A DNA stretch of 31,398 nucleotides from a virus (Duplodnaviria; Caudoviricetes), in IMG/VR virus record IMGVR_UViG_3300020043_003881, positions 1 to 31,398 of that record. One strand, given 5' to 3'. This document shows positions 2,795-30,752 of the stretch, in pieces (within the stretch, counting starts at the first letter, position 1; each line of letters begins with the position of its first letter). The notes under the pieces are model-generated. The model was not told the DNA's origin. It saw only the letters and a program-made list of their open reading frames with translations, and ran no database searches. The translations under genes and the position numbers were made by a program.

Positions 2795-3005
2795 GGCCGG
2801 GTACTGTACCCGGCCTAGCGACTGTCGCTTCGCTCCAGCCTACAAGAAGAGCTTCAAGCTTTATCTTTTTCCTGTAGGTAGTGCCTACGGTCGAAGACCT
2901 TTTGTGCGACGAGGTATAATGACCTTGCCTCTCCAGCATCGCCTCCGGCCTCTTGCGTAGCAATATATAAAGGAGTGGCGAGCAGAAATCGTCCAGAATT
3001 TTTTA
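2795..3005 (-). other. Non-coding cassette B (bipartite motif + hairpin cluster + inverted repeat)
   Basis: Motif TGGACG-N17-CTTTATAT at 2995-2965; GCC-GGA-GGC hairpin 2941-2949; GGTC/GACC hairpin 2889-2899; CCTACA stem about 2839-2878; perfect palindrome GGCCGGGTAC-T-GTACCCGGCC 2795-2815. Confidence 0.85.
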
Positions 3006-3081
3006 AATAAATTTTAAAATAAATTCCACGATGGAGTTCAAATCTATTATTTTTTAGACATTAGGTACAAGAGAGGTTCAC

Positions 3082-3606
3082 ATGGCAATAATCACTACCA
3101 ACTACAACATGATAATAATGCACATTGCAGAATGTATTTCACACGGAAGAGGCGAAGCACTTTCTCTCCTAAGAGAAGAATATAGCGATGAAGATATTAT
3201 CAGAGATACTTATATTCACGCACTCGTTGCAAGCGATGAGGCATCTAAACAATTAAGAGCTTATTACGATGGCTGGAAAGGTCCAGAGGAAGAAGCAAGA
3301 ATGAGAATATCTATGGTTTGCAAATCATTTGTATCAAGTAAAGCAAAAATAATCAAAAGAAGAAGAGAAATCTTGCGTGAAAATGGCGAAGCTATAATTG
3401 CAGCCACACACTCTTCTGATTCAGAGACAAAACTAGCAAAGCTTGTGTTGGGCCTGCCAATCAATGATTCTGAAAAGACTATTCTTTGCTGGAGATTAGA
3501 TATGATTAAACAAGAGGAAGCGATGAACGAACTAGGACTTTCAAGAGCTTCGCTTTATGGAAGATGGATTGAACTAAAAACAAAACTACAGGGGTTATTC
3601 ATATGA
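3082..3606 (+). CDS. ECF-type sigma-factor-like protein
   Basis: 174 aa; DEDIIRDTYIHAL resembles ECF region 2.2 (AEDxxQETFxxA); LPINDSEKTILCWRLDMIKQEEAMNELGLSRASLYGRWIELKTKL resembles the region 4 HTH; GAGG RBS. Confidence 0.65.
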   Translation: MAIITTNYNMIIMHIAECISHGRGEALSLLREEYSDEDIIRDTYIHALVASDEASKQLRAYYDGWKGPEEEARMRISMVCKSFVSSKAKIIKRRREILRENGEAIIAATHSSDSETKLAKLVLGLPINDSEKTILCWRLDMIKQEEAMNELGLSRASLYGRWIELKTKLQGLFI

Positions 3607-4067
3607 TGAAAATTTGCATTTGCTGTAAGATAGAAAAATCGTCCACTGATTTTGGTGTTAATAAAAGTAGAAAAGATGGTTTGAATTATTATTGCAAAGC
3701 TTGTGTATCTATCAAAGATAAAGAAAAAAATAAAAAACATGCTGAAAGAATAAAAGTAAGAAAAGCAAAAGCTCGTCAAAGTATAGATGGTAAATATCAG
3801 ACATATAAAGATGCTGCCAAAACTCGTGGTATGGTTTTTGATCTTACAAAAAATGATTTTGAAACATTTTGGCAAAAACCATGCTATTATTGCGATGCTC
3901 CAATGAAAACAATCGGAATAGATCGTAAAGATAATAGCATTGGATATACGTTGGATAATTGTCTATCATGTTGTAAAATATGTAATCTAGGAAAACACAC
4001 TAGCACTTATGAGGAGTACGTCGAGCACTGCAAAAGAATGGCAAGAAAATGGGCCGATGCTATATAA
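3603..4067 (+). CDS. HNH-type endonuclease with N-terminal zinc finger
   Basis: CICCKIEK...DGLNYYCKAC zinc finger; PCYYC...GIDRKDNSIGYTLDNCLSCCKICNLGK His-Me finger core; ATGA overlap with the upstream gene. Confidence 0.85.
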   Translation: MMKICICCKIEKSSTDFGVNKSRKDGLNYYCKACVSIKDKEKNKKHAERIKVRKAKARQSIDGKYQTYKDAAKTRGMVFDLTKNDFETFWQKPCYYCDAPMKTIGIDRKDNSIGYTLDNCLSCCKICNLGKHTSTYEEYVEHCKRMARKWADAI

Positions 4068-4127
4068 AAAATATTTTAAAAAAATTAACCAGAAACACAG
4101 GATTTCTGCTAATTAAGTATCATATGA

Positions 4128-4262
4128 TGTCAGACACCAATTCCGGTTTCTGGCAAAAGATAAAACAACAATTGCTTTTTGTTATTCTATACAGTCAGAG
4201 TCAGACCCCTCCCCAATCAATAAGCCACTCGGTGAACCTCCCGAGTGGCTTTCTTTTTTATC
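4128..4262 (+). ncRNA. Candidate small RNA in convergent intergenic region
   Basis: TATCAT -10-like box 4118-4123; 5' hairpin 4128-4155; C-rich CCCCTCCCC 4206-4214; ends in an intrinsic terminator. No family recognised. Confidence 0.35.
4222..4262 (+). terminator. Rho-independent terminator, possibly bidirectional
   Basis: Perfect 11-bp stem AAGCCACTCGG/CCGAGTGGCTT with 8-nt loop, then TCTTTTTT; lies between convergent transcription units. Confidence 0.85.
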
Positions 4263-4275
4263 TTTTTTATTTTTT

Positions 4276-4530
4276 TTACTTAACAGACTTATCGCCTCTG
4301 CAACCCCAACGTTTACGGCTTAGATTGTTCGGAGTGTTAGGATCATTCTGCTGTTCTTTTGATAAGCCTTTCTTAATACCAGCAGATCTGGCACAATAAC
4401 TATCGGCACGTTTCGATCCTTTTGGTGCAATCCTGTAACCCTTGGCACCATAAGAAACGGTTTTCTTTCTACCGGTTTCTGGATCTTCTACGACCTTAAC
4501 AGATTTCTTTCCTTCAGCGGGCTCAGCCAT
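4276..4530 (-). CDS. Small basic conserved phage protein
   Basis: 84 aa from MAEPAEGKK (GGAGG RBS upstream); R.DSYCARS...DPNTPNNLSRKRWGC pattern recalled from uncharacterised phage proteins (DUF6321-like, unverified). Confidence 0.75.
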   Translation of the reverse strand: MAEPAEGKKSVKVVEDPETGRKKTVSYGAKGYRIAPKGSKRADSYCARSAGIKKGLSKEQQNDPNTPNNLSRKRWGCRGDKSVK

Positions 4531-4921
4531 TTTTCCTCCTAGTAATTTGTATGTGCGGATAATCTTTAAACTTCTTCCAATTTCCGCCCCACTCAATATC
4601 CCATTCTGCACTTTCTTCCATATCATTCCAGGTATCTAAGATGTGTTCTCCAATCTCTTTAAATGAGTCGAGATCATCCCAGTCCAACGGGTAAGGGACA
4701 AAGTCAAAAGCCTGTGATGGAAGCTTGTTATGTTTGCTTGTAGGAAATTTTAGTTTGCTATTACCAGACTTAAAAGCAGCATCTTGTTCAGCCTTTCCTC
4801 TATGACCGCAGATTACTGTAAAGTCTTTAGGGCTTGTTTCTAATGCTTTGTTAGCAAGCTTCTGTAGGGCTTCTTCGCAGGTCGATAGATTTCCGAGACT
4901 GCGTTTTGAAAATTTATACAT
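4523..4921 (-). CDS. Endolysin, peptidase M15 family (L-Ala-D-Glu peptidase-like)
   Basis: SKRSLGNL, DFTVICGHRGKAEQ, SKHN...AFD, WGGNWKKFKDYPHIQ zinc-peptidase motifs; next to holin-like gene. Confidence 0.92.
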   Translation of the reverse strand: MYKFSKRSLGNLSTCEEALQKLANKALETSPKDFTVICGHRGKAEQDAAFKSGNSKLKFPTSKHNKLPSQAFDFVPYPLDWDDLDSFKEIGEHILDTWNDMEESAEWDIEWGGNWKKFKDYPHIQITRRKNG

Positions 4922-5078
4922 CTTTATAAGCTTCAGATATTTTATGTGCTAAATCATAAAGAGCTTGCACTATTACTGTTATTTCTTCTTTTGTTAATCC
5001 ATCTTTGCTTAATGATGCAATCAAAGAAATTGTTTTTACACCACTAAGAATTAAATTTGCGCGTTCTTTATGTGTCAT
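4914..5078 (-). CDS. Hypothetical 54-aa protein in lysis module (absent from ORF track)
   Basis: Hand translation MTHKERANLILSGVKTISLIASLSKDGLTKEEITVIVQALYDLAHKISEAYKDV; GGAGA RBS, TAATG coupling to holin stop, overlaps endolysin start. Confidence 0.8.
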   Translation of the reverse strand: MTHKERANLILSGVKTISLIASLSKDGLTKEEITVIVQALYDLAHKISEAYKDV

Positions 5079-5347
5079 TATCTCTCCTTTAAAATTGCAT
5101 GTTTAATATCTTTAACATCATCTTCAACTTTTTCTAAGCGTCTGCTCATCACTTCAACAGCGTCAACGAAAACCTTTCTGTTAGCTCTGCTTTCTGTAAT
5201 AAAACCATCCATTATTTTTTCTTGGGCGGGAAGAGAATACTTGACAAGAAAATAACCAAAGCCAAACATACAAAGAAGCGAAACAGCCACCGCCGAAGCT
5301 GGACCAGAAATCGCTGATACCAAAAGGCTAACCGTTGCAGCATCCAT
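5078..5347 (-). CDS. Putative holin (N-terminal TM segment + coiled coil)
   Basis: Hydrophobic stretch SAVAVSLLCMFGFGYFLV followed by charged coiled coil MSRRLEKVEDDVKDIK; upstream of endolysin. Confidence 0.6.
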   Translation of the reverse strand: MDAATVSLLVSAISGPASAVAVSLLCMFGFGYFLVKYSLPAQEKIMDGFITESRANRKVFVDAVEVMSRRLEKVEDDVKDIKHAILKER

Positions 5348-5551
5348 TTATTTATCCTTCCCAGCATCTAACATAGCTCTTACAATCGGCCTACAAACAG
5401 AGACCAAGGGTGAACTAGAGCTGGTTTCATCGTAGCTAAGAAGAAGAGCTTCCCATTCTGCATCAGTAAAAACAACAGCTATGCTTATTCCTGGTTCGTA
5501 ACCATCTTCGCTATTTTGATATTCACCGCGATTAACAAAATCTATTTTCAT
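5348..5551 (-). CDS. Hypothetical protein
   Basis: 67 aa, AAGGAGG RBS, tiles the operon. Confidence 0.75.
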   Translation of the reverse strand: MKIDFVNRGEYQNSEDGYEPGISIAVVFTDAEWEALLLSYDETSSSSPLVSVCRPIVRAMLDAGKDK

Positions 5552-5560
5552 AAAACCTCC

Positions 5561-6337
5561 TTAAGCTATTTTGGTTACGATATACTTTATTCTCATTGAG
5601 AAGGCGCCTGCCGTGGTGGTCAACGTGCCATTGGTTGACAGTAATATTCCAAGACTTAGCTGACCAGTTGTTGCAATGTTCCACTGTCCACCATCTAATC
5701 TTGAGTTTACTGAACCCCCTGGTGCCGCAGAATAAGCCGCCATCATAACACCAGATTTATACATCGTATTTGTAGGTCCACCACTAAATGCAGCAGTTCC
5801 TACACCTCTAACCATATTCGCAACAGAAGCAACAGCACCAAGGTTATCGGCTCCCCAACCACCAACACCAGGAGTACCGACAGAAGATGTTAGGCAATAA
5901 ACGCCGCTTCCTCTAAGTGTTCCTAATACTGTGCTTGTAGGGTTTTGTATAACAGAAGTGCAAACCAAGTATTGTCTTGCCAAACCTGGACTTATCTGAT
6001 CTATTGTTACCGACAAAGTAAATGTATCTCCGGCTAATACTGGAGAGCCATCAGCATAGGTAAGTAGCTTATGCCACTTTGGACCTGTAAAGTTTGAACC
6101 AGATATTATGGAATATGTTTCGTTAGCTACGCCGATTGTATTGACGTTAAATGTATGTATATCGTTTGTGCTATTATAAGAATAACTTGAAAGAGCTACA
6201 CCTGCTGTGTTAGTAAATGTATAGGAACCTCCGTTAAGATCACCCAAGGATTGTATAGGATCTATTGGTGTCGGTGAAGGAACCACACCTCCAATCGCTC
6301 CACCGGTATAAGGATCAAATACGCGTGATACTGGCAT
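5561..6337 (-). CDS. Putative virion fibre/receptor-binding protein
   Basis: 258 aa, Gly/Ser/Thr-rich with beta-strand character; N-terminus MPVSRVF resembles that of the 337-aa neighbour. Confidence 0.55.
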   Translation of the reverse strand: MPVSRVFDPYTGGAIGGVVPSPTPIDPIQSLGDLNGGSYTFTNTAGVALSSYSYNSTNDIHTFNVNTIGVANETYSIISGSNFTGPKWHKLLTYADGSPVLAGDTFTLSVTIDQISPGLARQYLVCTSVIQNPTSTVLGTLRGSGVYCLTSSVGTPGVGGWGADNLGAVASVANMVRGVGTAAFSGGPTNTMYKSGVMMAAYSAAPGGSVNSRLDGGQWNIATTGQLSLGILLSTNGTLTTTAGAFSMRIKYIVTKIA

Positions 6338-6338
6338 T

Positions 6339-6533
6339 TTAAAAATCTCCCCAGCTTCTAAGGCTGTCTGTTGCCGCTAGTACATCTGCCATGCTTTCGA
6401 TTATCCAAATGGTTCCGAAAGCGTTTATGGAAGTGTATAGTTCTGTTGGATAAATAGTTTCTAGCTCGTCACAAATGGTTGACCAAGTAGGTGAATAGTG
6501 AACTTGAGCCTGACCTTCTACAATGATAATCAT
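6339..6533 (-). CDS. Hypothetical protein
   Basis: 64 aa, GAGG RBS, ATGA overlap with upstream gene. Confidence 0.7.
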   Translation of the reverse strand: MIIIVEGQAQVHYSPTWSTICDELETIYPTELYTSINAFGTIWIIESMADVLAATDSLRSWGDF

Positions 6534-7543
6534 AGTGACCTCTCAAAAATGCTAATCTTTTTAATCCGAAATGGAACATCATTAGCTTGAATGCTGCCGG
6601 TAGATCTTGAACAGTATGCAACCATCCAAAGATTATTGGTTGTTCTTCCGGCAGTAAATGTTGAAGGTAATGAATACGTTGTTGTCGCATTCATGTTACC
6701 TGCTGGTGCAGATCTAACAAGAGAACATGTATTATTAGAATGCTGATTTAGACAACCGCCACCTAATGTATTCCAAGTTGTTGACATTCTAGTTGAGCTT
6801 GTATTAAAGAATGTATTAAATGGAGCCGCTGCAGTTTGAAAGGAACCTTGAGGATAAGAACCAGCAGCAAAGCCTGAAGGTCCAAATGATATCGCTCCAA
6901 TCTCTGATGTTCTTCCTAAGCTTGTAGGTATACTTGTATGCCTATATCCGGTAAAGTTTCCTTGAGGTCTTGGTGTTCCGTTAGCTGCCCATAGATCCAA
7001 GTTATGTAGGAAGCCAACGTTCATATAGCTGTACGCTGTTTGTGCATTTGATACAGATCCATTTAACCAAAGTGGTTCTATATCGACCACGACCTCATAT
7101 TGAAGTTGCTGGAAATAAGTGTCCCCTTGAAGTTTTGTGGAAAGCGTTCTTAAATCTATGCCTAGCATTGGAACTGCGATGTTTGACCAATACTGAAGAC
7201 CAAGCTCACTTGTTACAACATCAGGAAGAAACTCAAGTTTGCCAGATTTTATTCTCTGAATACCGCTAGCACCAATGCCAGCAGCGCACTTAACCGCTTT
7301 GATTGTAGCAGTCTGTGCGCTTGTAGACCCACCGGTTACGGGGATTTGGTAATCACCGTCAACCTTTAAGTTTTGATCCGGCATTTGAGAGAAGTCAAAC
7401 TGTGCAAGAAGAGAGTTGTCTATATAGACTGTAGGACCAGGAACATCGACGTATACGGTCGGACCTGGCACGTCAACATGCACAGTCTGAGATTCAACTT
7501 TGATAATCTCTTTTGTTTTAGAGAAAGCACGTCCAAGAGGCAT
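6530..7543 (-). CDS. Putative virion fibre/receptor-binding protein with VDVPGPTVY repeats
   Basis: 337 aa; N-terminal VHVDVPGPTVYVDVPGPTVYID stalk-like repeat; Ser/Thr/Gly/Asn-rich C-terminal domain. Confidence 0.55.
   Translation of the reverse strand: MPLGRAFSKTKEIIKVESQTVHVDVPGPTVYVDVPGPTVYIDNSLLAQFDFSQMPDQNLKVDGDYQIPVTGGSTSAQTATIKAVKCAAGIGASGIQRIKSGKLEFLPDVVTSELGLQYWSNIAVPMLGIDLRTLSTKLQGDTYFQQLQYEVVVDIEPLWLNGSVSNAQTAYSYMNVGFLHNLDLWAANGTPRPQGNFTGYRHTSIPTSLGRTSEIGAISFGPSGFAAGSYPQGSFQTAAAPFNTFFNTSSTRMSTTWNTLGGGCLNQHSNNTCSLVRSAPAGNMNATTTYSLPSTFTAGRTTNNLWMVAYCSRSTGSIQANDVPFRIKKISIFERSL
7424..7477 (-). repeat. Tandem 27-nt repeat encoding VDVPGPTVY x2
   Basis: Peptide identical, DNA diverged at third codon positions. 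Confidence 0.85.
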
Positions 7544-7547
7544 CGGA

Positions 7548-7973
7548 TTACTCCGACCAGACGATACAACTATTTGCTAAAGTTACAGTTCCAGAGTCAG
7601 TTTTAATAAAAACATAAAGTTTTTCTGTGCCAAAGAATTGTTTAAGTGGGAGCTTAAATTCGTATGCACAAGTTCCGGTAGTTGCGGTAGTTAATCCAAC
7701 AGCAATATCGGCTTCTGTATCTGGAAAGAATGTAAAATCTCCAGTGGGATCGCAAGTAATCCTAGCAGTAATTTTAGCTGCGCCACCAGCAATAGCTGTT
7801 ACGCGAACGTAAAGACCTTCAACGTATCCAAAAAATGCTGATCCTTGATAGGCTAAGTTGCCATCAAGACCAAGATCATGTTCGTGGAATTTTGCTACGT
7901 CAAAAGCTGTGCCAGCAGACGTTCTATTTAGAGTAACTGTTGAGCTGTGATAAAAATTTCCTGTTTTAGCCAT
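7548..7973 (-). CDS. Putative structural protein
   Basis: 141 aa, beta-rich, Thr/Ala/Gly-rich; first gene after a class II motif. Confidence 0.55.
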   Translation of the reverse strand: MAKTGNFYHSSTVTLNRTSAGTAFDVAKFHEHDLGLDGNLAYQGSAFFGYVEGLYVRVTAIAGGAAKITARITCDPTGDFTFFPDTEADIAVGLTTATTGTCAYEFKLPLKQFFGTEKLYVFIKTDSGTVTLANSCIVWSE

Positions 7974-8000
7974 AAACCTTCTCCTTCTTCTTCGGGGTTA

Positions 8001-8021
8001 TATAATAGTGAATAAGTCAAG
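8001..8021 (-). promoter_or_regulatory. Class II motif (putative late promoter)
   Basis: CTTGACTTATTCACTATTATA upstream of the 7973 operon; related to four other intergenic copies. Confidence 0.7.
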
Positions 8022-8024
8022 TGA

Positions 8025-13925: not shown

Positions 13926-13933
13926 TTTTTCTC

Positions 13934-16965: not shown

Positions 16966-16976
16966 TATAATGCTCC

Positions 16977-17009: not shown

Positions 17010-17174
17010 TTAAAAAATCTGGACGATTTTGGACTCTCAATCCTTTATATAAGCGTAGCGTAAAGGGCCGGAGGCCAAGAGAAAGGGCAAGTGATTAAGA
17101 ATGTCGGGCTTACGCCCTCCAACCTACAAGAAGGATTCCAAGCTTTTGGCCCGGTCAGTATTCTTGTAGGTATA
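17010..17174 (+). other. Non-coding cassette D (only copy in + orientation)
   Basis: TGGACG-N17-CTTTATAT 17020-17050; GGCC-GGA-GGCC 17066-17076; GGCAAG 17086-17091; GGGC-TTAC-GCCC 17106-17117; perfect 11-bp IR ACCTACAAGAA 17122-17132 / TTCTTGTAGGT 17161-17171. Confidence 0.85.
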
Positions 17175-17915
17175 TTACCCATAGAATACTTCGCAAGTGA
17201 ATGATCTAGCTGATGAGTAGCCCTGCTCGACCTTAGCACTTACCATCAGAATAAAGCTGTATTCTCCTGCTGGTAATCCTTTAACTACCCAGGTCCATCC
17301 AGACCATCTTCTAAGACAGTATTGTGCGTCTGTTGTAGGTCCATAGCCTGCTGCAAGCAATAATGATGTGTTGGTCGCATCTCTTGGAGCGGCTGTTACT
17401 GCAGTTGTTTCCTCAAACGAATAAGACCTTGTTCCTTCAATTGTCTCCCAGTTATTTGATGTATTATCACGATAACGAAGAGCGATTTTGCTGTCCCATT
17501 TGCCTTTGCCCTGGACTTCATTTTCATCAGAAATAAATGTGCCACCAAAAGTTATAAGAATATCTGCAGTTGAAGATAAATATAATGTTTGTCCGGTGTT
17601 ATAAATACTTTGATATTGAACAGGATTGGCACTTGTCTGTCTACCTGTTTTTATATTGCTTGTAAAGTAAGCCCTGTTAACAACTTCTTTGTCTGAAAAT
17701 TGACCTAGTACTTCACCGGATACAAAGCGATACTGGTTTGTGATTGGCTGCAACTCGCCGCTCTGTATTTGATCAAAGTCAATATTTGAATCGGCATAAT
17801 CCGCAAATACAATTCCTTGGTTAACATATTTTTTAACAGCGTCATCATTAAGCTGCTGATTAGCTCCAGAAAGTACGTTACCATCTACGTATGCATACGG
17901 TTTTGTGAACGACAT
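17175..17915 (-). CDS. Tail-associated protein (fibre/baseplate-like), paralog 3
   Basis: 246 aa; N-terminal YVDGNVLSGANQQLNDDAV anchor-like motif; follows nozzle gene. Confidence 0.55.
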   Translation of the reverse strand: MSFTKPYAYVDGNVLSGANQQLNDDAVKKYVNQGIVFADYADSNIDFDQIQSGELQPITNQYRFVSGEVLGQFSDKEVVNRAYFTSNIKTGRQTSANPVQYQSIYNTGQTLYLSSTADILITFGGTFISDENEVQGKGKWDSKIALRYRDNTSNNWETIEGTRSYSFEETTAVTAAPRDATNTSLLLAAGYGPTTDAQYCLRRWSGWTWVVKGLPAGEYSFILMVSAKVEQGYSSARSFTCEVFYG

Positions 17916-18629: not shown

Positions 18630-18638
18630 CTTATCTCC

Positions 18639-19376: not shown

Positions 19377-19384
19377 CCTATCTC

Positions 19385-21646: not shown

Positions 21647-21649
21647 TTT

Positions 21650-23164
21650 TTATCCTTTTGTTCTCAATGAAGCGTAATCGTAACGAACGTAGTTATCGAA
21701 TCCGCCAAGTGTAAATTGGCCTCTGACGATCATAGAGTCAATGTGACTGACGTATCTTTTTTCTAGACCTTTTATTTCTTTTTCAAATCTGGACCTATAC
21801 AATTGTGACTGCGATATATTTCCAAGCTTATCGTAAAGTGTTTCCAATACTTTGTAGGAAATTAACTGGTGGAATTCATTTGGCATTTCTGGAGAATCTG
21901 TTTGTAGGCCAAGTGCTTTTGGCTTGTAATAGTATCTTGCGACACCTTCGCGTAAATACTGTAGATTTACTTTTGATGTAGTTTCGGTTGCATCAGCTTC
22001 TAAGATTCTGCTATCCCAAGCGTCTACTCTTGGGTAGGGTCTTATCTGAAGATGCTGACCATCGTATTCGATATATCGTCTGTTACCAGCATCAATTTGA
22101 TTTAAATGTGTTATTGTTACTGTAGAAAGCAAATCGTCTACAACTACTGTATCCAAATATGTTGTGCTATTTCTTGTAGCACCACCTTTATTAAATGTTT
22201 TCCATACAGGAAGACCGAGGCGTTCACCGGTTGCTCTATCAAAGTTTGCATTCCAGAAAACTACTTTTCTGTAGCCTTCCCACTGAGTTGGCTCTTTGTC
22301 AAAGCTTTGGAAAGAATCCGCAAATATAGCTTGGTCATCCCAAGATACAAATTTTATTGTCAAAGAATAAGAAGTAATTTCTTGTCCTACAGCAAAAGAA
22401 ATGGTTTCTGGTTTAGAAAGAGGGCCTACAAGACCATCCTTAACAAATGCCCAGCATACTTCAAGCGAAGTACCAGGAACAAATCCAGAGGTTCCTTGAA
22501 TTGATGTTGCTTCTAGAGCTACTTTTTCGGCTCCAGGTATATTGTAAGCCTCTGACCAAATATATGTTTCTGCGTAAGTAGCAGCGTAATCCATTCTGAG
22601 ACCTAGCTCTTCGTCTCTTCTTGGCATTAATCCGATTATTTTTCCGTATGGAGGGAATCTTCCGGTGCCGCTTGTAGAGTTAGGTACATCTCTGTGAGCA
22701 AGAGAAAGTAACTCTATGCAATCTTCTGGTAGTGAATACCATCTATGTTTAATTCTCCAGGAAGAATCATCAATTTTTGTATCACCAAGAAATTGCTGGT
22801 CAAGGAGTATCGTTCCGCCATTAACTACTTTAGAGATTGTGTATTCATAATTTTGTATTTCTATTGGCTGACCTTCCCATAGGTCTGGTAGCAATCTATC
22901 CATAAACGGAGCAAATGTTACCTGTCTGCTTCCTTTAACAACGCTTGCAAAAGTATCAAGACCTGGATTTTCTCTTTCAGGTGTCATGTCTGGATGAAAT
23001 CTAAAATAATATTCTTTAAATCCGTAAACCCAGCGTCTCATAGTCCATATGGAGTAGTAAGCGTCATTTATTAAATCATCAAGCTGATCATTGTAAGCCG
23101 CAAGCTGAGGGCTATAATCGCTGATATTTTTAATTTTTTCTTTGATCGCGGTTAAGTTGCTCAT
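21650..23164 (-). CDS. Head-tail adaptor (gatekeeper) protein with inserted domains
   Basis: 504 aa; LDDLINDAY...W N-terminal helix, YSLPEDC, IRPYP, DSPEMPNEFHQLISYKVL C-terminal adaptor pattern. Confidence 0.7.
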   Translation of the reverse strand: MSNLTAIKEKIKNISDYSPQLAAYNDQLDDLINDAYYSIWTMRRWVYGFKEYYFRFHPDMTPERENPGLDTFASVVKGSRQVTFAPFMDRLLPDLWEGQPIEIQNYEYTISKVVNGGTILLDQQFLGDTKIDDSSWRIKHRWYSLPEDCIELLSLAHRDVPNSTSGTGRFPPYGKIIGLMPRRDEELGLRMDYAATYAETYIWSEAYNIPGAEKVALEATSIQGTSGFVPGTSLEVCWAFVKDGLVGPLSKPETISFAVGQEITSYSLTIKFVSWDDQAIFADSFQSFDKEPTQWEGYRKVVFWNANFDRATGERLGLPVWKTFNKGGATRNSTTYLDTVVVDDLLSTVTITHLNQIDAGNRRYIEYDGQHLQIRPYPRVDAWDSRILEADATETTSKVNLQYLREGVARYYYKPKALGLQTDSPEMPNEFHQLISYKVLETLYDKLGNISQSQLYRSRFEKEIKGLEKRYVSHIDSMIVRGQFTLGGFDNYVRYDYASLRTKG

Positions 23165-23502
23165 TGATGCTTCTCCAAATATTTTATAGCAGATTTTAAA
23201 ATTTCTATATTATCTTTAGACATACCAAGCAATGTATTACATTTATTACAAAGCAAGCCTCTTGCTTCATTAGTAATATGGCAATGGTCAACGCAAAGTG
23301 CTTTTGATAAGTCTGCTTGATGATCACCACAAATTTTACAACAACCTTCTTGGTCTATAAACATTTGATTGTAATCATTATATGTAAAAAATTGTTTATT
23401 TATCATTATTCCAGAATTTTTCCATCTCCAATTACATTCATAAACTTTTCTTTTACCTGGATTTTTTTTAGCCCATTTAGCTTGCGCTGGATTTTTAACC
23501 AT
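23161..23502 (-). CDS. Endonuclease VII-like protein
   Basis: QEGCCKICG...LCVDHCH...ARGLLCNKCNTLLG. Confidence 0.9.
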   Translation of the reverse strand: MVKNPAQAKWAKKNPGKRKVYECNWRWKNSGIMINKQFFTYNDYNQMFIDQEGCCKICGDHQADLSKALCVDHCHITNEARGLLCNKCNTLLGMSKDNIEILKSAIKYLEKHQ

Positions 23503-23704: not shown

Positions 23705-23718
23705 AGAAACACCTCTTC

Positions 23719-23739
23719 TACATATACGGATTTGTCAAC
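23719..23739 (-). promoter_or_regulatory. Class II motif (divergent copy)
   Basis: GTTGACAAATCCGTATATGTA immediately after a terminator and before the tail operon. Confidence 0.55.
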
Positions 23740-23740
23740 C

Positions 23741-23774
23741 AAAAAAACTAAGGCCCGGCAGAGCCGAGCCATAG
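23741..23774 (-). terminator. Rho-independent terminator of capsid operon
   Basis: Minus strand CTATGGCTCGGC-TCT-GCCGGGCCTTAG followed by T7. Confidence 0.85.
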
Positions 23775-23797
23775 AATCTAAAGATTTTTAATTTATA

Positions 23798-24352: not shown

Positions 24353-24378
24353 ATTTAATTCTCCTTTTTTTTAATTGT

Positions 24379-24720
24379 TTATTTAAGATTGTTAACAAGA
24401 TAAGATTTTGCGTTATCCAGTAATTGAATATTATCTTCGAATGCCCCTATGCTTTTATTGCATCTATCACATAAGAGACCGCGGACTTTACCGGTTGAAT
24501 GACAGTGATCTACACAGAGCGATTTTTTTAAATCTTTTTGATGCGTATTGCATATAGCACAGCATCCTTTTTGATTTTCAAACATTGCCGTCCATTCTTC
24601 AGCAGAGACACCGTATCTTTGCTTTAATTTTCTGGCTCGCTCTTTGCCTTTTACATCACAATCATTATTCAATCTGCGTTCCCTCATGTATTCTTTCATT
24701 TTTTCTTTAGATAGAGGCAT
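24379..24720 (-). CDS. Endonuclease VII-like protein
   Basis: LKQRYGVS...QKGCCAIC...LCVDHCHSTGKVRGLLCDRCNKSIG. Confidence 0.92.
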   Translation of the reverse strand: MPLSKEKMKEYMRERRLNNDCDVKGKERARKLKQRYGVSAEEWTAMFENQKGCCAICNTHQKDLKKSLCVDHCHSTGKVRGLLCDRCNKSIGAFEDNIQLLDNAKSYLVNNLK

Positions 24721-24725
24721 TCGAA

Positions 24726-24755
24726 AATCCTACGTATTATTATACCGCAGGGATT
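24726..24755 (-). promoter_or_regulatory. Hairpin after MCP stop that overlaps the endonuclease RBS
   Basis: AATCC-C-TGCG...CGTA-GGATT stem followed by TT; AGGA in the 3' arm, TATAAT inside. Confidence 0.55.
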
Positions 24756-24756
24756 A

Positions 24757-25758
24757 TTACTGGAGATTCACACCGACTGCCTGACCGCCGAGGAAATCTG
24801 CGACGAGCTGGCACTTGACATAGAGGTTAGCAGATCTTGCGGTTGTACCGGAGATATGCTCGAAAGGAGAGATTGCGAAGTCGCCTTCGCTATGGAATAC
24901 AAGCTTGATACCATCGTAGTTTAGCATGTATGCATCGAGGGTTTCTCCACCAACGCTAGTTCCGAAGCCCATTTCTGGATCTGATTCAGCTAGAGCGCCG
25001 TTGAAAGCTAGGCCCATTCTTCCGCCGTCAAGAGTCTTGGTGTCGATAAATCTCTGGATATCGAAAAGTTCTTTTCTGTATCTTGCTAGAGCACCCTGTG
25101 ACATTATGAGGTGATCAACATCGCCCATTGGTGAAACTTGGTTAGCAGCAATGTACATGTTGTAGAGGTTGGTCATAAAGTCAGGAACTAGAGCACCGTT
25201 TGAGAACTGGTTTAGCCAACCTGGTACTGGGAAAGTAACCTTGGATATACCACCAACAATGTTGGTCTGAGCGGTTGTTGCTCTTGGCTCTAGGAAACCA
25301 AATCCACCAGCGGTTGAACCGTTGAGAGTATTGAGTGAGCTTAGAACAGCAGAGTTTCCTCTTAGAAGCTGCTTGTTTGCTTCTCTTCTGAGCATACCCA
25401 TAACAGACTTCATTCTTGCTTCAAGAATCTTAACGATAGCGTATTCTCCGCTATTCTCCATTTCTTCTTTCTTTGTGATTACGATTGGAGCGACGAAATC
25501 CGACCAATCATAAACTGCTGGTCTCAATACATCGTTAACTGCTAGTGAAACAGGCTCGTAACCGGTAGCAAGCTGGGTTATGGTTGAGTGTTCCTGGATG
25601 CTTAGTGGTCTCTGGATTTTGATGCCGCCTTTCTCGACTTCAACACCGCCAGCTTTCTTAACACCATCGAGGAATGCGACTTTCTTGTATAGTTCGTCAA
25701 CCTCTCCGTCTCTGATTGAGTACAGGGTTGAGCTGAGTAGATCATTGCTTATTGCCAT
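24757..25758 (-). CDS. Major capsid protein
   Basis: 333 aa; size and position between scaffold and decoration genes, strong RBS (TAGGAG), GGIKIQRPL and IVITKKEEMENSG patterns recalled from HK97-fold podovirus capsids. Confidence 0.85.
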   Translation of the reverse strand: MAISNDLLSSTLYSIRDGEVDELYKKVAFLDGVKKAGGVEVEKGGIKIQRPLSIQEHSTITQLATGYEPVSLAVNDVLRPAVYDWSDFVAPIVITKKEEMENSGEYAIVKILEARMKSVMGMLRREANKQLLRGNSAVLSSLNTLNGSTAGGFGFLEPRATTAQTNIVGGISKVTFPVPGWLNQFSNGALVPDFMTNLYNMYIAANQVSPMGDVDHLIMSQGALARYRKELFDIQRFIDTKTLDGGRMGLAFNGALAESDPEMGFGTSVGGETLDAYMLNYDGIKLVFHSEGDFAISPFEHISGTTARSANLYVKCQLVADFLGGQAVGVNLQ

Positions 25759-25928
25759 TGTAATTCTCCTAATTTTTTTTATTAATTTTTTTTAAACAAA
25801 CTGATTTTTGAAATTATTGTTGACGTGTCTGCGCGATGCAGGTGTCTAGATTTTTTCTTCGCCAGTTTGTGAATTAGGAAATCACATGGATGCTATATTC
25901 ACGCAGTCGGGAGAGATTGCACTGCTTC
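25759..25928 (-). ncRNA. Structured 5' leader of the major capsid gene
   Basis: 170-nt non-coding gap with stems GCAGT/ACTGC, ACAAACTG/CAGTTTGT (25863-70 with 25796-803) and inner CTGC/GCAG. Confidence 0.45.
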
Positions 25929-25949
25929 ATAAGATAAGAAAAAGTCAAG
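25929..25949 (-). promoter_or_regulatory. Class II motif (putative late promoter for MCP)
   Basis: CTTGACTTTTTCTTATCTTAT followed by GAAG. Confidence 0.6.
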
Positions 25950-25988
25950 TAAATTTACTTATTTTTTAAACATAATCTACAGACCAAT

Positions 25989-26140
25989 ATCTTGTTGTTA
26001 GATATCGCTCGCTGCGCTCGCTACCTACAGAGATAACACCCTCATGTCTTCTTGTAGGTCTGGGAGCGCAGCGACCAGTCTCCGAAGAGACTTCGTTAAT
26101 ATAAAGGAATGGGAGAGCAAATTTGTCCAAATTATTTTTA
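25989..26140 (-). other. Non-coding cassette C (short variant)
   Basis: TGGACA-N17-CTTTATAT 26129-26099; AGTCTC-TTCG-GAGACT hairpin; outer IR TCGCTGCGCTC 26009-26019 / GAGCGCAGCGA 26064-26074 enclosing ACCTACA/TGTAGGT. Confidence 0.85.
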
Positions 26141-26677
26141 GGGCTCCCAATAAATTTGTGACCCACGATAATAATTCTTTGTCATCTCTCGTTTGCCTGT
26201 AGTGAAATGCTTGTCTGTTAGAATAAAATAATTATTTGGCAGAAGAGCAAAGTGACCACCATCTACAATTAATAAACTTAAAGGCTTATGTTCTTGCGGA
26301 TGTTTAGCAAAGGCGTCGTCCCAGTCTACAATGATTCCTGTATGTCTGCCTTTCTGTGGTCCAAAGCGAAGCTCTACAGATAAGCCACCAAGATATTCTA
26401 GTTCAGATATCTTTAGATCTCTACCCATGCAGCCCCAAGGCTGAAGAATAGCTTGATCAACCTGGGGCCCTACCCAGTCTTCTGTGCGAAGCAAGTGTAA
26501 CGGAATGCCGCTCCAGTTTGCTCCAGTGTCTAACAAAACATGAGTTAAAAGAGCCTGACCTTCTCTGCCGTATATTCCGTGTAAAAGCCCTCGTGTATAA
26601 CCTTCGGGCATCTTGGGACCGAGCAACGCATTAGGTACAGAAACGTAAAAATGCTGAGGCAAGGTTTTGTGATTCAT
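26138..26677 (-). CDS. Hypothetical phage protein between scaffold and MCP
   Basis: 179 aa, ATGA overlap with scaffold stop; contains VLLDTGA, LQPWGC, EHK and LPNN motifs. Confidence 0.8.
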   Translation of the reverse strand: MNHKTLPQHFYVSVPNALLGPKMPEGYTRGLLHGIYGREGQALLTHVLLDTGANWSGIPLHLLRTEDWVGPQVDQAILQPWGCMGRDLKISELEYLGGLSVELRFGPQKGRHTGIIVDWDDAFAKHPQEHKPLSLLIVDGGHFALLPNNYFILTDKHFTTGKREMTKNYYRGSQIYWEP

Positions 26678-27450
26678 TTCATACCGTTAGCTTTGTGCCA
26701 ATTATATGCTTCCATAGCATTTTTAAACTTTGGAGCAGCAGCAACAGCGGTTCTGCTACCTACAGAAGATTTAAGTGCAGTATCTTTTCTAGCAGCTTTT
26801 GCTTCTGCTATTTTAGATCTTTCTACATCTAAAGCCTGTGATCCTAGTTTTGCTTTTACAATGTAAAACGCATCTTCCAACTTAAGCTCTGGTCTCTGTG
26901 CTAAAAGCTCCAATACTGGGCCTCGGTAAGTAGGATCAGTAAGCTCAGGATTCTTAGCTTTAAAATCATCCAACTGCAATTTTCTTTGCTGTACTTCTAA
27001 CTCTTTCTGAGCTGGCTCTAGCATCTGCTTTAGCATCAATCCAGCTTGTCTCTGAATCTCTGCCTTCATTCCGTTAGGATCAAAGAGGTCGTACTCTTCT
27101 TCTACATTTATTTTATTTAGCTGCTCTGCAAGTGGGCCTCTCATAATGTGCTCATTCTTGCGGTACATCTCGGCTTCTTTATCTTCAAGTGATTTTCTTA
27201 TGTTAGAAATCTCCTGAGTCTTTCTTGTGTAATCTGCTCTAATATTTGCTAAATGTTTTCGTACATCCTCTGGTACGTGTTGCATCCAGTGTGAGAGCGG
27301 CTTCATTCCTTTATGAGAATCTTCTGCTTTAAACTCTGGATACTGCTCGTCATCTATATTGAGCAAATCTTCTAGGGTTATATTATCTGGTAAACCACTA
27401 TCTTCTACTGAGGTATTGTCCTGAACGACAGTCTCGTTGTTTTCTGACAT
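26674..27450 (-). CDS. Capsid scaffolding protein
   Basis: 258 aa; acidic N-terminus, ADYTRKTQEIS motif, coiled coil, LEDAFYIV and short C-terminal helix; upstream of MCP. Confidence 0.75.
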   Translation of the reverse strand: MSENNETVVQDNTSVEDSGLPDNITLEDLLNIDDEQYPEFKAEDSHKGMKPLSHWMQHVPEDVRKHLANIRADYTRKTQEISNIRKSLEDKEAEMYRKNEHIMRGPLAEQLNKINVEEEYDLFDPNGMKAEIQRQAGLMLKQMLEPAQKELEVQQRKLQLDDFKAKNPELTDPTYRGPVLELLAQRPELKLEDAFYIVKAKLGSQALDVERSKIAEAKAARKDTALKSSVGSRTAVAAAPKFKNAMEAYNWHKANGMK

Positions 27451-27472
27451 TTTTTATTCCTTATTTTTTTTA

Positions 27473-27625
27473 TTATTTTTTATCTTTCTTTTTATCAACT
27501 TTAAATGGGCCTTTCTTTTTCTTCATCTGCTCATAGACTTTTGGATCGATTGTAGAATCTTTCTTAGATCTTGGTCCGCCTTTCTTTTCTCTAGACTTGC
27601 GGATGTTTTCGTAAAGATTGCTCAT
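27473..27625 (-). CDS. Small lysine-rich 50-aa protein (absent from ORF track)
   Basis: Hand translation MSNLYENIRKSREKKGGPRSKKDSTIDPKVYEQMKKKKGPFKVDKKKDKK; TAATG coupling to the upstream gene; fills the gap before scaffold. Confidence 0.8.
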   Translation of the reverse strand: MSNLYENIRKSREKKGGPRSKKDSTIDPKVYEQMKKKKGPFKVDKKKDKK

Positions 27626-28167
27626 TACATTCTATCCATCATCATTGCGTCAGCGTCTTCTTCGGTCATCATTTCAGCTTCTGGAGCTTCCATTTCCATC
27701 TCCATTTCTTCAGGCTGCTCTTCTTGTAAGAATCTTTTAAATTCTCTATCTCGAGCAAGCATTTCTATTTTACCAGAAAGTGACATTAATTCTGCATCAG
27801 ATCTTATTGATCCCAAGTCTATTTTCATCTCTGGGTTTAAAATACCAGCTTCAATAGCATCGTCAACTGCGGCAACAAACATAGCAAGCACTCTAACAAG
27901 ATCGGTTGGCAATACATTTGTGTCCATAATCTTTGGATACGAGGGGTCTTGTCCAAAAAGAACCAAAAGTTTATTTGTATTCTTAACCAAAGGATCGAGA
28001 GCCCTTGAAGTGAAAGAGCCTTTAGGAGCCATTGCAGCATAAGTTTCCTCGTCTTCCATTTCTAGTTCATTAAGCTCTTCTGCTACAGGTGAAGATCCTG
28101 GCGCTCTACCGCCAATCTGTATCTCTACTTCTACGTTTGGTTTCTTTTTCATCATGTCTTTCATCAT
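27625..28167 (-). CDS. Acidic Met/Glu-rich hypothetical protein in head module
   Basis: 180 aa, AAGGAG RBS; EEMEMEMEAPEAEMMTEED tail. Confidence 0.8.
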   Translation of the reverse strand: MMKDMMKKKPNVEVEIQIGGRAPGSSPVAEELNELEMEDEETYAAMAPKGSFTSRALDPLVKNTNKLLVLFGQDPSYPKIMDTNVLPTDLVRVLAMFVAAVDDAIEAGILNPEMKIDLGSIRSDAELMSLSGKIEMLARDREFKRFLQEEQPEEMEMEMEAPEAEMMTEEDADAMMMDRM

Positions 28168-28180
28168 GTTAATCTCCTTT

Positions 28181-28651
28181 TTAAATTGTTATTTTTTCGT
28201 TGAATGTTTCATGAAGAGAACCATCAAGGCAAGCTTCGGTTGTGAAAGTTTCTGTCATAGCCCTGATTTTATCGCCGCCATATTCAGTAACCTTACTATT
28301 ATAGGTATCTGTCAACCTATCTTGCTCTTTTATTTTTTCTATTTTTTTAGCTTGCTGATCTTCCCACCAATGTGGAGCTAGATCAGATTCAGAAACGAAA
28401 CCTTTTGCCTCAAGTATCTTTGCTTCTTCTCTTTTAGAATGTACTTTTTTACCGAGTGCGTGAGAATGAAATCCCTGTCCCTCTAACCCGGCGTTCCAGC
28501 CCCCATTCCACAATGTGCTAGTTTTTGCGAGTAGAGGCGGGAGTTTTTTCATAGATATATCGCAGGCAGTACAGATAACTTCTGTTTCTTTTCTAATAAA
28601 TTTTTCTACTTTAGCTCCGCAAACGGGGCAATGGAAATCGAATATTGGCAT
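28181..28651 (-). CDS. FmdB-like zinc-ribbon protein
   Basis: MPIFDFHCPVCG...CTAC N-terminal zinc ribbon; immediately downstream of portal. Confidence 0.8.
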   Translation of the reverse strand: MPIFDFHCPVCGAKVEKFIRKETEVICTACDISMKKLPPLLAKTSTLWNGGWNAGLEGQGFHSHALGKKVHSKREEAKILEAKGFVSESDLAPHWWEDQQAKKIEKIKEQDRLTDTYNSKVTEYGGDKIRAMTETFTTEACLDGSLHETFNEKITI

Positions 28652-28661
28652 TTTTTATCCT

Positions 28662-30296
28662 TTATTGTAGTGATTGCGCTAAGGCTTCTGCATCGCTTAT
28701 ATTGGTTTCTACACCGCCTTCGATGTTCTCTATGTCTGCGGCTGAAGGAGCGGCTACAGGTGCCTCTGGAGGCGCTGGAATAGCCTCTAGGAAGGTCTTT
28801 GGAAGCTCGTATGCTCTGATGATTTCTTCTTTTATTTTTTCTGGTGGTACGCCCAGACCTTGTAGTGTTGGTAGTAAACTTAAAAGATTTTGTTTTCTTA
28901 TTGCATCAGATAGTGGAGTGCTTCCCTGGTCTAAAGCATTGATTCTAAACTTACCTTCCAAGTCTGCTGGTGTAATTACTTTGCCTTCGCCTTCGACGTT
29001 AAGTACAGCTTTATCGCCATCTTCTGCAAGTAGAACTAGTGTTCTGATATAGACGTTAACTATATTCTCTAACGAGTTATCACGTTCTCTTGCTAGTTTA
29101 CCAATTTCACTTGCAGAATATTGAGCTAATGCTGTAATTTCTGTTGCAGTTGCTTTAGTAGCCTCTCCTCTAGCAAATGGTGCAAGTGAAGATCCTCTAT
29201 TAATATCTGACTCGATTGCTGCAAGATATCTGTCAAAGTTAGATGATATTGGTTCTACGCCAACAGGCATTATAATACCTGACAAGGTATCTGAATCTAC
29301 GCCAATCATAGCGCCGTCGATACCAGCAGTAATCTTTGCCAAAGCTTCTTCATCAATCATGCCTTCTCTGTAAAGATACTGTCTGCTGTCTCTTCTAACT
29401 GCGTTTGCCCAGTATGTTCTTAAAATATTTTTTTCATAAAACTGGTCGTATAATCTTGCAAGTGAGCTTAAACCTTCCATTGGTTTAGATGGCGACCTGC
29501 TATAAAAAAGCGGAACAATTGGTGCGAGTGGTAAATCATTGTATGTTCTAACAGGAATCTCTGAACGAAGAATTAGACCGTCACCATTCTTGTAGGATGG
29601 CGACCAGTAGTAAACTTCGTTGTGTAGTAGGTCGTATAGCTCAACGATTTCTATGTAAAGATAATCATCTGGTAGATCATTGTAGTCTTGCTTTGTGTAG
29701 CTTACTGGACCGCCGCCTTCATCAAAATAGTTTTCTTTAGGAACTGCAACAAACTTTTTAGCCCCAAATTTTCTTTTTGCTTCTACCATGTTTAGGTAGT
29801 AAGTGTGTCCAATAAATCTTTGATCAGATGCTGCTGTTGCATCTCTATCTAATATTACTTCCCAGCAAGGTATTGCTGTAATTGTTGCTTTGTCTAGCAT
29901 TTCATCTGATTCTGCAGGGCTTAGCTTAAGCGCAGAGTAAGGATAGATAAGTGCAAGTCTTGATGCTATCTCAAATTGTTCTCTCTGATTATAAAGAAAT
30001 CTATTTGCTGCTGCTTGAGCTAGCTTTGGATCACCACCTGTTGCAGCTAAATCTGCACCGATAACAACTGAAGGAGACTTGGAGAATAGAGAAGAAATAT
30101 AGCTTTCGATGAAGCCATAAGCATCTGCAGTCTCAACACGAATCATTGTCGTGTCATACATCTCTTCCTTCCAAAATTTAGACTCGTATGCATTTTTATA
30201 TCTTTTTAAATCTCCGGCTTGCTGTTTCCAGAATTCTTTGTGGTCCGAGAAGATAATTTTTATAAATTTCTGTATGTCGTCGTTATTTCTGGCCAT
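28662..30296 (-). CDS. Portal protein
   Basis: 544 aa; follows terL on the circle; ARGEATKATATEI motif typical of podovirus portals. Confidence 0.85.
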   Translation of the reverse strand: MARNNDDIQKFIKIIFSDHKEFWKQQAGDLKRYKNAYESKFWKEEMYDTTMIRVETADAYGFIESYISSLFSKSPSVVIGADLAATGGDPKLAQAAANRFLYNQREQFEIASRLALIYPYSALKLSPAESDEMLDKATITAIPCWEVILDRDATAASDQRFIGHTYYLNMVEAKRKFGAKKFVAVPKENYFDEGGGPVSYTKQDYNDLPDDYLYIEIVELYDLLHNEVYYWSPSYKNGDGLILRSEIPVRTYNDLPLAPIVPLFYSRSPSKPMEGLSSLARLYDQFYEKNILRTYWANAVRRDSRQYLYREGMIDEEALAKITAGIDGAMIGVDSDTLSGIIMPVGVEPISSNFDRYLAAIESDINRGSSLAPFARGEATKATATEITALAQYSASEIGKLARERDNSLENIVNVYIRTLVLLAEDGDKAVLNVEGEGKVITPADLEGKFRINALDQGSTPLSDAIRKQNLLSLLPTLQGLGVPPEKIKEEIIRAYELPKTFLEAIPAPPEAPVAAPSAADIENIEGGVETNISDAEALAQSLQ

Positions 30297-30310
30297 ATTT
30301 CCGTGTCCTC

Positions 30311-30331
30311 ACTATTAGTGAATTAGTCAAG
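30311..30331 (-). promoter_or_regulatory. Class II motif (putative late promoter for portal operon)
   Basis: CTTGACTAATTCACTAATAGT followed by GAGG; nearly identical to the 8001-8021 copy. Confidence 0.7.
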
Positions 30332-30333
30332 TG

Positions 30334-30543
30334 CTAGTAGATATAAAAAGCTTCATGAAACAAAAGTTTCAATTGTTCTTCTGGCTGTAACCAATCAAGA
30401 ACATGCTCTTTCCTGATAGGATAATTGCTGCGACCATCGGCCTCTTGTATTGACCACTCTCCAGCGGGTGAGCGCCAGTCTGGCATATGAAACACTACTT
30501 TGCGGATTCCAACGTCTATAATTTTTTTATCTTTGTTATTCAT
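30334..30543 (-). CDS. Hypothetical protein
   Basis: 69 aa, AGGGGA RBS, between cassette A and portal. Confidence 0.65.
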   Translation of the reverse strand: MNNKDKKIIDVGIRKVVFHMPDWRSPAGEWSIQEADGRSNYPIRKEHVLDWLQPEEQLKLLFHEAFYIY

Positions 30544-30589
30544 TATAGTCCCCTAGGGGCGCTGCCCCATTGATATTATACGAGGGCTA

Positions 30590-30752
30590 TTACCGACAAA
30601 ATATATATCCAGGCCATTTTTCTTTGTCGGTAAATACCAGCGGGCAGAGCCCTTTTGCGTGTGGTTGCCTTGCCACTCCTTCAGGGCTTCCAGCCACTTG
30701 CTCTAGCAATATATAAAGGAGTGAGGAGCAAAATTTGTCTAGATTATTTTTA
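30590..30752 (-). other. Non-coding cassette A (also at 1-160, truncated by 3 nt)
   Basis: TAGACA-N17-CTTTATAT 30741-30711; GGCT-GGA-AGCC 30685-30695; GGCAAG 30669-30674; GGGC-TCT-GCCC 30642-30652; perfect 11-bp IR TTACCGACAAA 30590-30600 / TTTGTCGGTAA 30623-30633. Confidence 0.85.

Follow-up and report, generated by a model that had tools for sequence, protein, structure and literature searches.

The window analyzed here, i.e., the whole 31,398-nt stretch of tailed phage DNA (Duplodnaviria; Caudoviricetes) available as IMG/VR record IMGVR_UViG_3300020043_003881, contains four multipart cassettes, A to D, in which a promoter-like box is followed by small hairpins and an inverted repeat. The explanation that we favor, and hold tentatively, is that these cassettes are promoters for the host RNA polymerase (RNAP) together with a phage sigma-like protein, and that the 100-150 bases following each promoter act as single-stranded DNA, opening a replication start for host enzymes. 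The parts of the cassettes, in the coordinates of the window, are as follows:

Cassette A, 30593..30751, minus strand: -35-like hexamer at 30736-30741, CTTTATAT box at 30711-30718, hairpin 2 at 30685-30695, GGCAAG at 30669-30674, hairpin 3 at 30642-30652, core inverted repeat at 30625-30631 / 30593-30598; directed into a 69-aa open reading frame (ORF) and the portal operon.
Cassette B, 2795..3005, minus strand: -35-like hexamer at 2990-2995, box at 2965-2972, hairpin 2 at 2941-2950, GGCAAG at 2924-2929, hairpin 3 at 2889-2899 (GAA loop, opposite strand), core at 2873-2879 / 2839-2844, hairpin 4 at 2822-2838 (GAA loop, tandem G-A), extra 9-bp hairpin at 2795-2815; directed into the GIY-YIG-like, sigma region-4, and terminase genes, and back-to-back with the sigma-like gene.
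Cassette C, 26007..26139, minus strand: -35-like hexamer at 26124-26129, box at 26099-26106, core at 26053-26059 / 26024-26029, hairpins 3 (26060-26078) and 4 (26007-26021) with mirror-image GCA loops and tandem G-A pairs on opposite strands; upstream of a separate leader of the capsid gene.
Cassette D, 17010..17170, plus strand: -35-like hexamer at 17020-17025, box at 17043-17050, GC-GTA-GC minihairpin, hairpin 2 at 17066-17076, GGCAAG at 17086-17091, hairpin 3 at 17106-17117, core at 17122-17128 / 17165-17170; antisense, into the end of the tail gene 17175-17915.

The four cassettes are real. Their coordinates and sequences, first proposed in a sequence-only reading of the window, were confirmed, all of them fitting T[AG]GAC[AG]-N17-CTTTATAT with 21-25 of 31 positions identical between pairs of the 31-mers, and leave-one-out position weight matrices scored the held-out copies at 30.4-34.6 bits versus at most 13.5 bits for the next genomic site, the held-out score being reached in none of 100 shuffled genomes. 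The 14-15 nt said to precede hairpin 2 measured 15, 14, and 15 nt in A, B, and D, respectively; hairpin 3 and the ACC[TG]ACA..TGT[AC]GG repeat are present as described, and hairpin 2 and GGCAAG are indeed lacking from C, while the 9-10 nt given for the spacing to GGCAAG hold for A (10) and D (9) and become 11 in B when counted from its 3-bp stem (10 in register). An AT-rich flank was borne out for B and D (97-98th percentile) and not for A (72nd) or C (62nd), and the loops of the inverted repeat, which had been called unrelated, contain CCGG or GGCC in 18 of the 27 core stems of the family (a by-eye count); pairing of this loop CCGG with hairpin 2 into a pseudoknot was also considered and rejected, being drawable by eye in some copies and failing in others. 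The earlier reading missed a hairpin that overlaps the TATA box, and it also missed the hairpins of B and C that have GNA loops (N being any base) and tandem G-A pairs.

The cassette is not restricted to the window. Relatives were gathered as capsid-anchored (80) and terminase-anchored (14) loci, and cassette pattern scans gave 34 viral and 47 metagenome hits, with the full cassette in 5 and 27 of them, respectively; homologues of window genes adjoin all 27 full-cassette metagenome hits and none of the other 20. A search with nhmmer gave 42 anchored hits, reducible to 25 distinct copies at 97% (a duplicate of cassette A in the terminal overlap of the window being excluded). The cassettes occupy at least six different slots in both orientations and, as far as these sequence comparisons reach, the family is confined to a podophage-like clade of ~30-kb tailed phages: copies outside the clade, i.e., the 20 of 47 metagenome and 29 of 34 viral hits without the rest of the cassette, were rejected, and blastn against named phages and plasmids returned nothing meaningful. 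The best outside hit (L114, E 0.35) and another contig, L090, share only the TATA, GCCGGAGGC, and GGCAAG parts, which in L114 (146-198) precede a 589-aa ORF, putatively virophage capsid-like, and in L090 (4950-5050), a contig of 405 kb, are enclosed by an inverted repeat that is long and perfect; both sites are probably independent GNA-hairpin signals. One locus, L141, has ~290 nt inserted in its core-stem loop (~700-990), flanked by a 13-nt direct repeat.

That the 5' part of the cassette has a promoter role is very likely. Twenty of the 25 distinct copies are sense to the next gene, and they are placed at operon starts, the sense slots lying before the sigma region-4/terminase block, the portal block, an FmdB-like gene, g30, the capsid gene, and sigL, the gene for the sigma-like protein; the sequence-only reading underweighted this simplest interpretation, i.e., the phage's own promoters, for which both the orientation and the coupling of promoter type to the sigma-like gene speak. 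As a sigma70 consensus scan did not list A, C, or D (B is outside the scanned range) and TATATA taken as the -10 box would lie 20-21 nt from the -35-like hexamer, a non-standard reader of the promoter is likely, for which the window offers two candidates:

sigL, 3082..3606, plus strand: sigma-like protein of 174 aa, putative reader of the cassette promoter.
Sigma70 region-4-like helix-turn-helix protein, 1932..2258, minus strand: 108 aa, downstream of B, alternative candidate binder.

SigL has no Pfam or PHROG match, and its structural model is of low confidence (pLDDT 64, the C-terminal part poorly modelled), sigma domain-2 structures taking ranks 1-4, 6, and 14-17 among the fold matches (best Z 5.7, root-mean-square deviation 3.4, 84 aligned). 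The 108-aa protein, homologues of which are widespread among the fetched relatives, matches Pfam Sigma70_r4 below the cut-off (E 0.0056) and PHROG sigma/activator families at E 2e-4 to 4e-3. Within a genome the promoters agree in type, and this type goes with the clade of the sigma-like gene: the -35 hexamer reads T[AG]GAC where sigL is at least 42% identical to that of the window, and TTACA[CG] with the 29-32% identical sigL clade and the loci linked to it. Other relatives have in the sigL slot a different and weakly related sigma-like family, A6 (a weak lead in hhalign, E 0.0033, probability 9.7%), and a different multicopy promoter, present before the sigma region-4 gene and in the scaffold-capsid region, which runs through GGYCCT, a TA-rich box, GCATCTYGG, and small hairpins to end in the same CCAACAA as the cassette. 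Genome G004, which also encodes GroES and RusA homologues, has a third multicopy type consisting of a TATACAT (TATA) box and a GAA/GGA hairpin, which a pattern scan found in no other viral contig; scans for the C-type, A6-type, and G004-type elements added only one further contig, and PDB sequence searches with the profiles of sigL, A6, and a polymerase-like protein of the relatives (PolA-like, treated below) gave nothing significant. The copies of these two other types are:

A6-type: L002 2894 and 9569; L043 2240 and 9187; L001 6188; also L010, L119, L122, L125, L126, and L131.
G004-type: L189 5949-6068 and 15494-15621; L190 ~13700; one antisense at the slot of D, one upstream of the PolA-like gene.

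The part downstream of the promoter looks like a DNA signal, judging from its loops and their strands. Hairpin 2 has a GGA or GAA triloop in 19 of 19 aligned copies (one of them with a C-A closing mismatch), 97% of its cells being paired and C-G being changed to T-A in 5 of the 19 sequences. Across 28 cassettes (the 25 distinct ones and three with the 3' module only), the top strand has 40 GNA triloops and the bottom strand 16, versus 2.2 and 1.5 in base shuffles, and other triloops come to 44 versus 26.5, all these counts being inflated by kinship; each of the four possible middle bases occurs in the GNA loops of each strand. The order of the hairpins is strand-polar, with hairpins 1 and 2 on the top strand, hairpin 3 on the bottom strand, then the core repeat, and hairpin 4 on the top strand again, hairpins 3 and 4 mirroring one another around CCNACAA/TTGTNGG; the mirror pair on opposite strands is complete in B, C, L004, and L007, with one side or none elsewhere, and the tandem G-A pairs of B and C, read directly from the sequence, are in the outer hairpins. 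The 5' arm of hairpin 1 overlaps the TATA box in L111, L141, L151, and L170, so that this hairpin would not be transcribed whole, and GC skew over the 50 bases with which the transcript would begin averages +0.36 against a coding background of +0.06 (standard deviation 0.23), being above zero in 24 of the 25 (related) copies. Minihairpins of this kind are, according to one account (PMC13037366), much more stable as DNA than as RNA, and are found at the G4 origin, at the single-strand initiation (ssi) site ssiA of RSF1010, and in the promoters of the N4 virion RNAP (vRNAP). A GGA-triloop hairpin is also found in a 600-nt gap (L187 10314-10931) of G003, a complete relative without a sigL, A6, or PolA-like match.

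Cassette D, which runs backward, has counterparts as well. Its slot, at the junction of tail and ejection genes, and its orientation recur in L135 and in L118, the flanking proteins of L118 being 26-42% identical; at the same slot, G004 has an antisense copy of its unrelated promoter type and L006 an 18-bp inverted repeat with core-like sequence. In L151 and L155, the ORFs ahead of the copy form a block in the opposite orientation, and the antisense copies have no downstream sense gene among the window homologues. A DnaA-box origin was considered at this slot and rejected, the sole consensus box of the genome (16983-16991, ~30 nt upstream of D) being lost in the D orthologue of L135.

The favored explanation would then run as follows. 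RNAP with sigL would bind the TRGAC..CTTTATAT promoter, as orientation and co-variation suggest, and its G-rich, purine-rich transcript may remain on the template as an R-loop; the GNA minihairpins 1 and 2 would keep the displaced strand open, with hairpins 3 and 4 predicted to fold on opposite strands around CCNACAA/TTGTNGG. Either the RNA end or a locally loaded host primosome could prime DNA synthesis, by analogy with the promoter-origins of ColE1, T4, and T7; a start on the opposite strand would come from D, the backward copy, and the sense copies would additionally drive the terminase, portal, and capsid operons. The idea of a replication origin, raised in the sequence-only reading, gains indirect support only, from the conservation in relatives and the DNA-type hairpin signatures.

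Quite a few points weigh against this explanation. The replication, R-loop, and transcription roles are all deduced from sequence, 20 of the 25 copies are explicable as plain promoters, and the copies are related by descent, so that the family counts are not independent. Cumulative GC skew, which the sequence-only reading had suggested as a check, turns only with gene orientation and is uninformative on the origin. The family is patchy, its covariance model R1 finding a match in 1 of 32 records of relatives and in none of the 4 complete ones; several copies (L102, L129, L130) are without hairpins 3 and 4, hairpin 2 is missing in C, and nothing occupies the D slot in at least six loci and in G001-G003. 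SigL, with its model as it stands, is a weak lead only as a sigma factor; 8 of the 11 relative loci in which sigL adjoins a cassette were fetched by the cassette pattern itself, only L128, L129, and L130 being free of this bias, and in L037 a distant sigL occurs without a cassette. In L001, an A6-linked region and a D copy are joined within a 3-kb segment 96% identical to the window, meaning that D is not strictly dependent on sigL, and G003, having neither cassette, sigL, A6, nor polymerase, indicates that the clade can replicate without any of them. Finally, the N position of CCNACAA/TTGTNGG is paired in 20 of 27 cases by three pair types (T-A 5, G-C 2, A-T 13), which, along with a tRNA enclosed in a stem of this repeat in some relatives, fits an RNA stem.

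For the gene content of the window, 33 ORFs were scanned with Pfam and PHROG. These named the large terminase, the major capsid protein, an adaptor, virion proteins, an M15 endolysin, three endonuclease VII-like ORFs, and a weak sigma region-4 protein; the portal and a GIY-YIG-like ORF were recognised by eye and from their position. The scans turned up no helicase, primase, polymerase, or integrase, and a profile hidden Markov model (HMM) of the clade's PolA-like protein had no match in the window, so the earlier claim of a genome with no replication genes holds at the sensitivity of these searches. The 1966-aa protein, which has no Pfam or PHROG match, has as its nearest named atlas cluster the LPD38 type (ejection proteins), which it resembles more than a polymerase.

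A possible, if rather unlikely, alternative is that the cassettes are promoters with a structured 5' leader, or with extrudable DNA hairpins, which tune transcription by put-like antitermination, pausing, or promoter opening, the antisense RNA from D damping the tail operon. The sense orientation of most copies at operon starts agrees with it, as does the lone CCAACAA, found in A6-type copies without a nearby partner arm and just before the ribosome-binding site, and a long late operon would presumably gain from antitermination. HK022, a phage without a recognised antiterminator, has two put elements behind its promoters, each of ~70 nt and two stems, and the cassettes resemble these in being multicopy, promoter-proximal stem-loops (PMC9378689); they differ from put in lacking an Rfam match and in having DNA-type hairpins, some of them on the untranscribed strand. 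In an RNA element one would expect neither mirror symmetry nor GNA loops on the strand that is not transcribed, nor would sense G-U pairs be expected to be scarce: among the 35 non-Watson-Crick pairs of 22 distinct core stems (7-18 bp), sense G-T is the rarest (4), against 12 A-C, 6 G-A, and 13 others. The sense RNAs of D (z -1.7) and A (z -0.8) fold no better than shuffles, compared with z -5.7 for C and -2.7 for B, and the capsid gene owns a promoter and leader downstream of C. This separate conserved leader (25790-25950, minus strand; also L001 6425-6615, L007, L008, L009, and L010) has its own sigma70-like promoter with an invariant CTTGAC and looks RNA-like from its predicted structure, with double-sided changes at 6 of 21 predicted pairs (6 sequences), several G-U pairs, and no Rfam match.

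Rather less probable, and indeed unlikely, are small-RNA expression units comprising a promoter, a leader, a processing stem (of the RNase III or Mini-III type), and a loop cargo such as a tRNA. The paralogous small RNAs of the sequence-only reading thus come out weaker, given that sense G-U pairs are the rarest mismatch, and are kept alive by a tRNA inside a stem: in L001 (6270-6425), L002, and L005, a tRNA-Ala(TGC) sits behind an A6-type promoter, enclosed by nested, doubled CCAACAAG/CTTGTTGG stems (19 bp with a single sense G-U), and L004 has a tRNA behind the cassette. The compensatory T-A, G-C, and A-T core pairs, the folding of C, and the antisense copies, with no sense gene downstream among the window homologues, point in the same direction. 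A stem for RNase III or Mini-III would be expected to be a long sense helix with G-U as the main non-canonical pair, and the mismatch spectrum of the core stems is unlike that of an RNA helix; besides, the motif occurs without its partner arm, and no terminator-like site is listed right behind the core of A, C, or D (B is outside the scanned range). The Rfam comparison suggested in the sequence-only reading matched no known family, the covariance models of Rfam 15 (cis elements such as put included) giving no cassette match and only 6 hits with E<=5, all elsewhere and below gathering.

A different way of starting replication may exist among the relatives, as G001, G002, and G008 encode a 335-361 aa PolA-like protein and G004 a more distant one of 414 aa, in the same variable block as sigL, i.e., the lysis-terminase interval, opposite to the structural genes:

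L184, 1174-2181, minus strand: PolA-like gene.
L186, 1170-2216, minus strand: PolA-like gene.
L012, 1504-2592, plus strand: PolA-like gene.
L190, 12153-13397, minus strand: PolA-like gene.

This previously unannotated family (69 cluster representatives), found in phages for which no helicase was recognised, has an N-terminal winged-helix-like domain and the conserved residues R169, D193, K244, and HD321-322, corresponding to the family-A hairpin Arg, the two Asp, and RxxxK. The model built from a 52-sequence alignment reached pLDDT 91; among the Foldseek matches listed, all are family-A DNA polymerases (best E 3.3e-3), and the fold is nearly tied between DNA Pol I (Z 9.4) and T7 RNAP (Z 8.1). 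The modelled protein fits the TV-Pol class, a minimal family-A palm/fingers, whose members are predicted primase-polymerases (PMC2579912), one of them priming DNA with a partner protein (PMC7581432). With TV-Pol/CCPol, as described there, it shares the size of 335-414 aa, the family-A fold, and the conserved R, D, K, and HD(G); the differences are its absence from the window, an activity that is predicted, and the lack of recognised partners in the relatives, no D5 helicase, resolvase, integrase, or MP partner being recognised among the part of the neighbouring ORFs that was scanned. Priming in this clade could be by swappable modules, some genomes encoding the family-A primase-polymerase and others a sigma-like protein that makes the host RNAP a dedicated primase at cassettes on both strands, with no replication protein of their own; we regard this as doubtful at present, and the swap of polymerase for sigL is suggestive in two directions, for the enzyme might serve either priming or transcription.

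Another reading, very unlikely in our estimate, is that a single-subunit family-A enzyme (N4 vRNAP-like or TV-Pol-like) starts at the hairpins, these being either a legacy of a polymerase-encoding ancestor or sites served in trans by a co-infecting relative. N4 vRNAP binds hairpins with GGA/GAA triloops (PMC13037366), the fold of the relatives' enzyme is near-tied as said, and G004 has both the PolA-like ORF and three TATA-box/hairpin copies, one upstream of that ORF. No such enzyme was detected in the window, the 1966-aa protein being nearest to the LPD38 type, and G001, G002, and G008 have the enzyme and no R1 cassette. The cassettes share with N4 vRNAP promoters the C-GGA-G and C-GAA-G triloop hairpins and differ in that no vRNAP was detected in the window, the closing pair is T-A in 5 of 19, and a sigma-type -35/-10 box lies upstream on the same strand; in tandem slots, a cassette read in the N4 manner would be read antisense to the gene lying next upstream. 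Least probable of all are small mobile or repetitive extragenic palindromic (REP)-like repeats without phage function in intergenic gaps, since the at least six slots in both orientations, the four homing-endonuclease-like ORFs of the genome, and a TGTAGG-plus-hairpin arm recalling REP elements (which, like bacterial interspersed mosaic elements, have a conserved GTAG foot and a REP-associated tyrosine transposase, RAYT) are set against no transposase or RAYT detected with Pfam and PHROG, a GTAG tetranucleotide that is not kept (GTCG, GTTG), a concerted promoter type tracking the sigma-like gene, a D slot refilled by an unrelated promoter type in G004, and no copy found outside the clade.

Returning to the promoter followed by a replication start, its closest known counterparts are the R-loop origins, i.e., ColE1 RNA II, T4 ori(uvsY)/ori(34), and the T7 promoter-origins, with which the cassettes share a putative promoter followed by G-rich, presumably transcribed DNA and structured elements. 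T4 and T7 have several transcription-primed origins per genome and encode their own replisome, of which none was detected in the window phage; a further difference is that the cassette is ~150 nt long and multicopy, with GNA hairpins on both strands. R-loops and ColE1-like plasmids are places where host restart proteins can load (PMC5778457), and GC skew is treated in PMC4083084. The second group comprises the ssi signals (RSF1010 ssiA/ssiB with RepB', the G4 origin with DnaG, and the phiX174 primosome assembly site, pas, with PriA), to which the cassettes are alike in their GNA/GNNA minihairpins and the inverted pair on opposite strands, and from which they differ in having an attached, putative double-stranded promoter and no cognate primase of the RepB' type detected in the window (Pfam, PHROG, PolA-like HMM); the likeness is one of hairpin type and arrangement. 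No description of the cassette was found in the literature searched, most subscription papers and supplements being outside the search. Its ingredients are known; what seems not to have been described is their multicopy and sigma-linked combination in a phage for which no replication genes were detected.

The window itself is a circular phage assembly of ~30.6 kb in which positions 1-806 repeat 30593-31398 (786 of 806 identical, 20 substitutions), and the start of the assembly coincides exactly with the outer end of the core stem of cassette A, which, together with the substitutions, suggests strain mixing with a break at cassette A. The overlap thus includes:

Duplicate of cassette A, 1..159, minus strand: within the 806-nt terminal overlap, no independent locus.

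The four homing-endonuclease-like ORFs of this 30.6-kb genome lie at 2315-2758, 3603-4067, 23161-23502, and 24379-24720, one of them being GIY-YIG-like (by eye) and three endonuclease VII-like (PHROG). No host could be assigned, as the capsid protein searched against genome contigs gave one spurious 62-aa match, and matches to named phages were of 24-32% only.

Replication genes are not seen in many small uncultured tailed phages, and this clade might make the way in which such phages copy their DNA a testable question, as it supplies cis elements that can be cloned, a sigma-like factor as their candidate partner, and a minimal polymerase as the alternative. Should the cassettes be only promoters, they would still represent a pair of phage promoter and sigma factor that is undescribed and co-varies in nature, together with an unusual leader rich in hairpins; should the swappable-module idea be true, a virion-making double-stranded DNA phage would replicate without a replication protein of its own.

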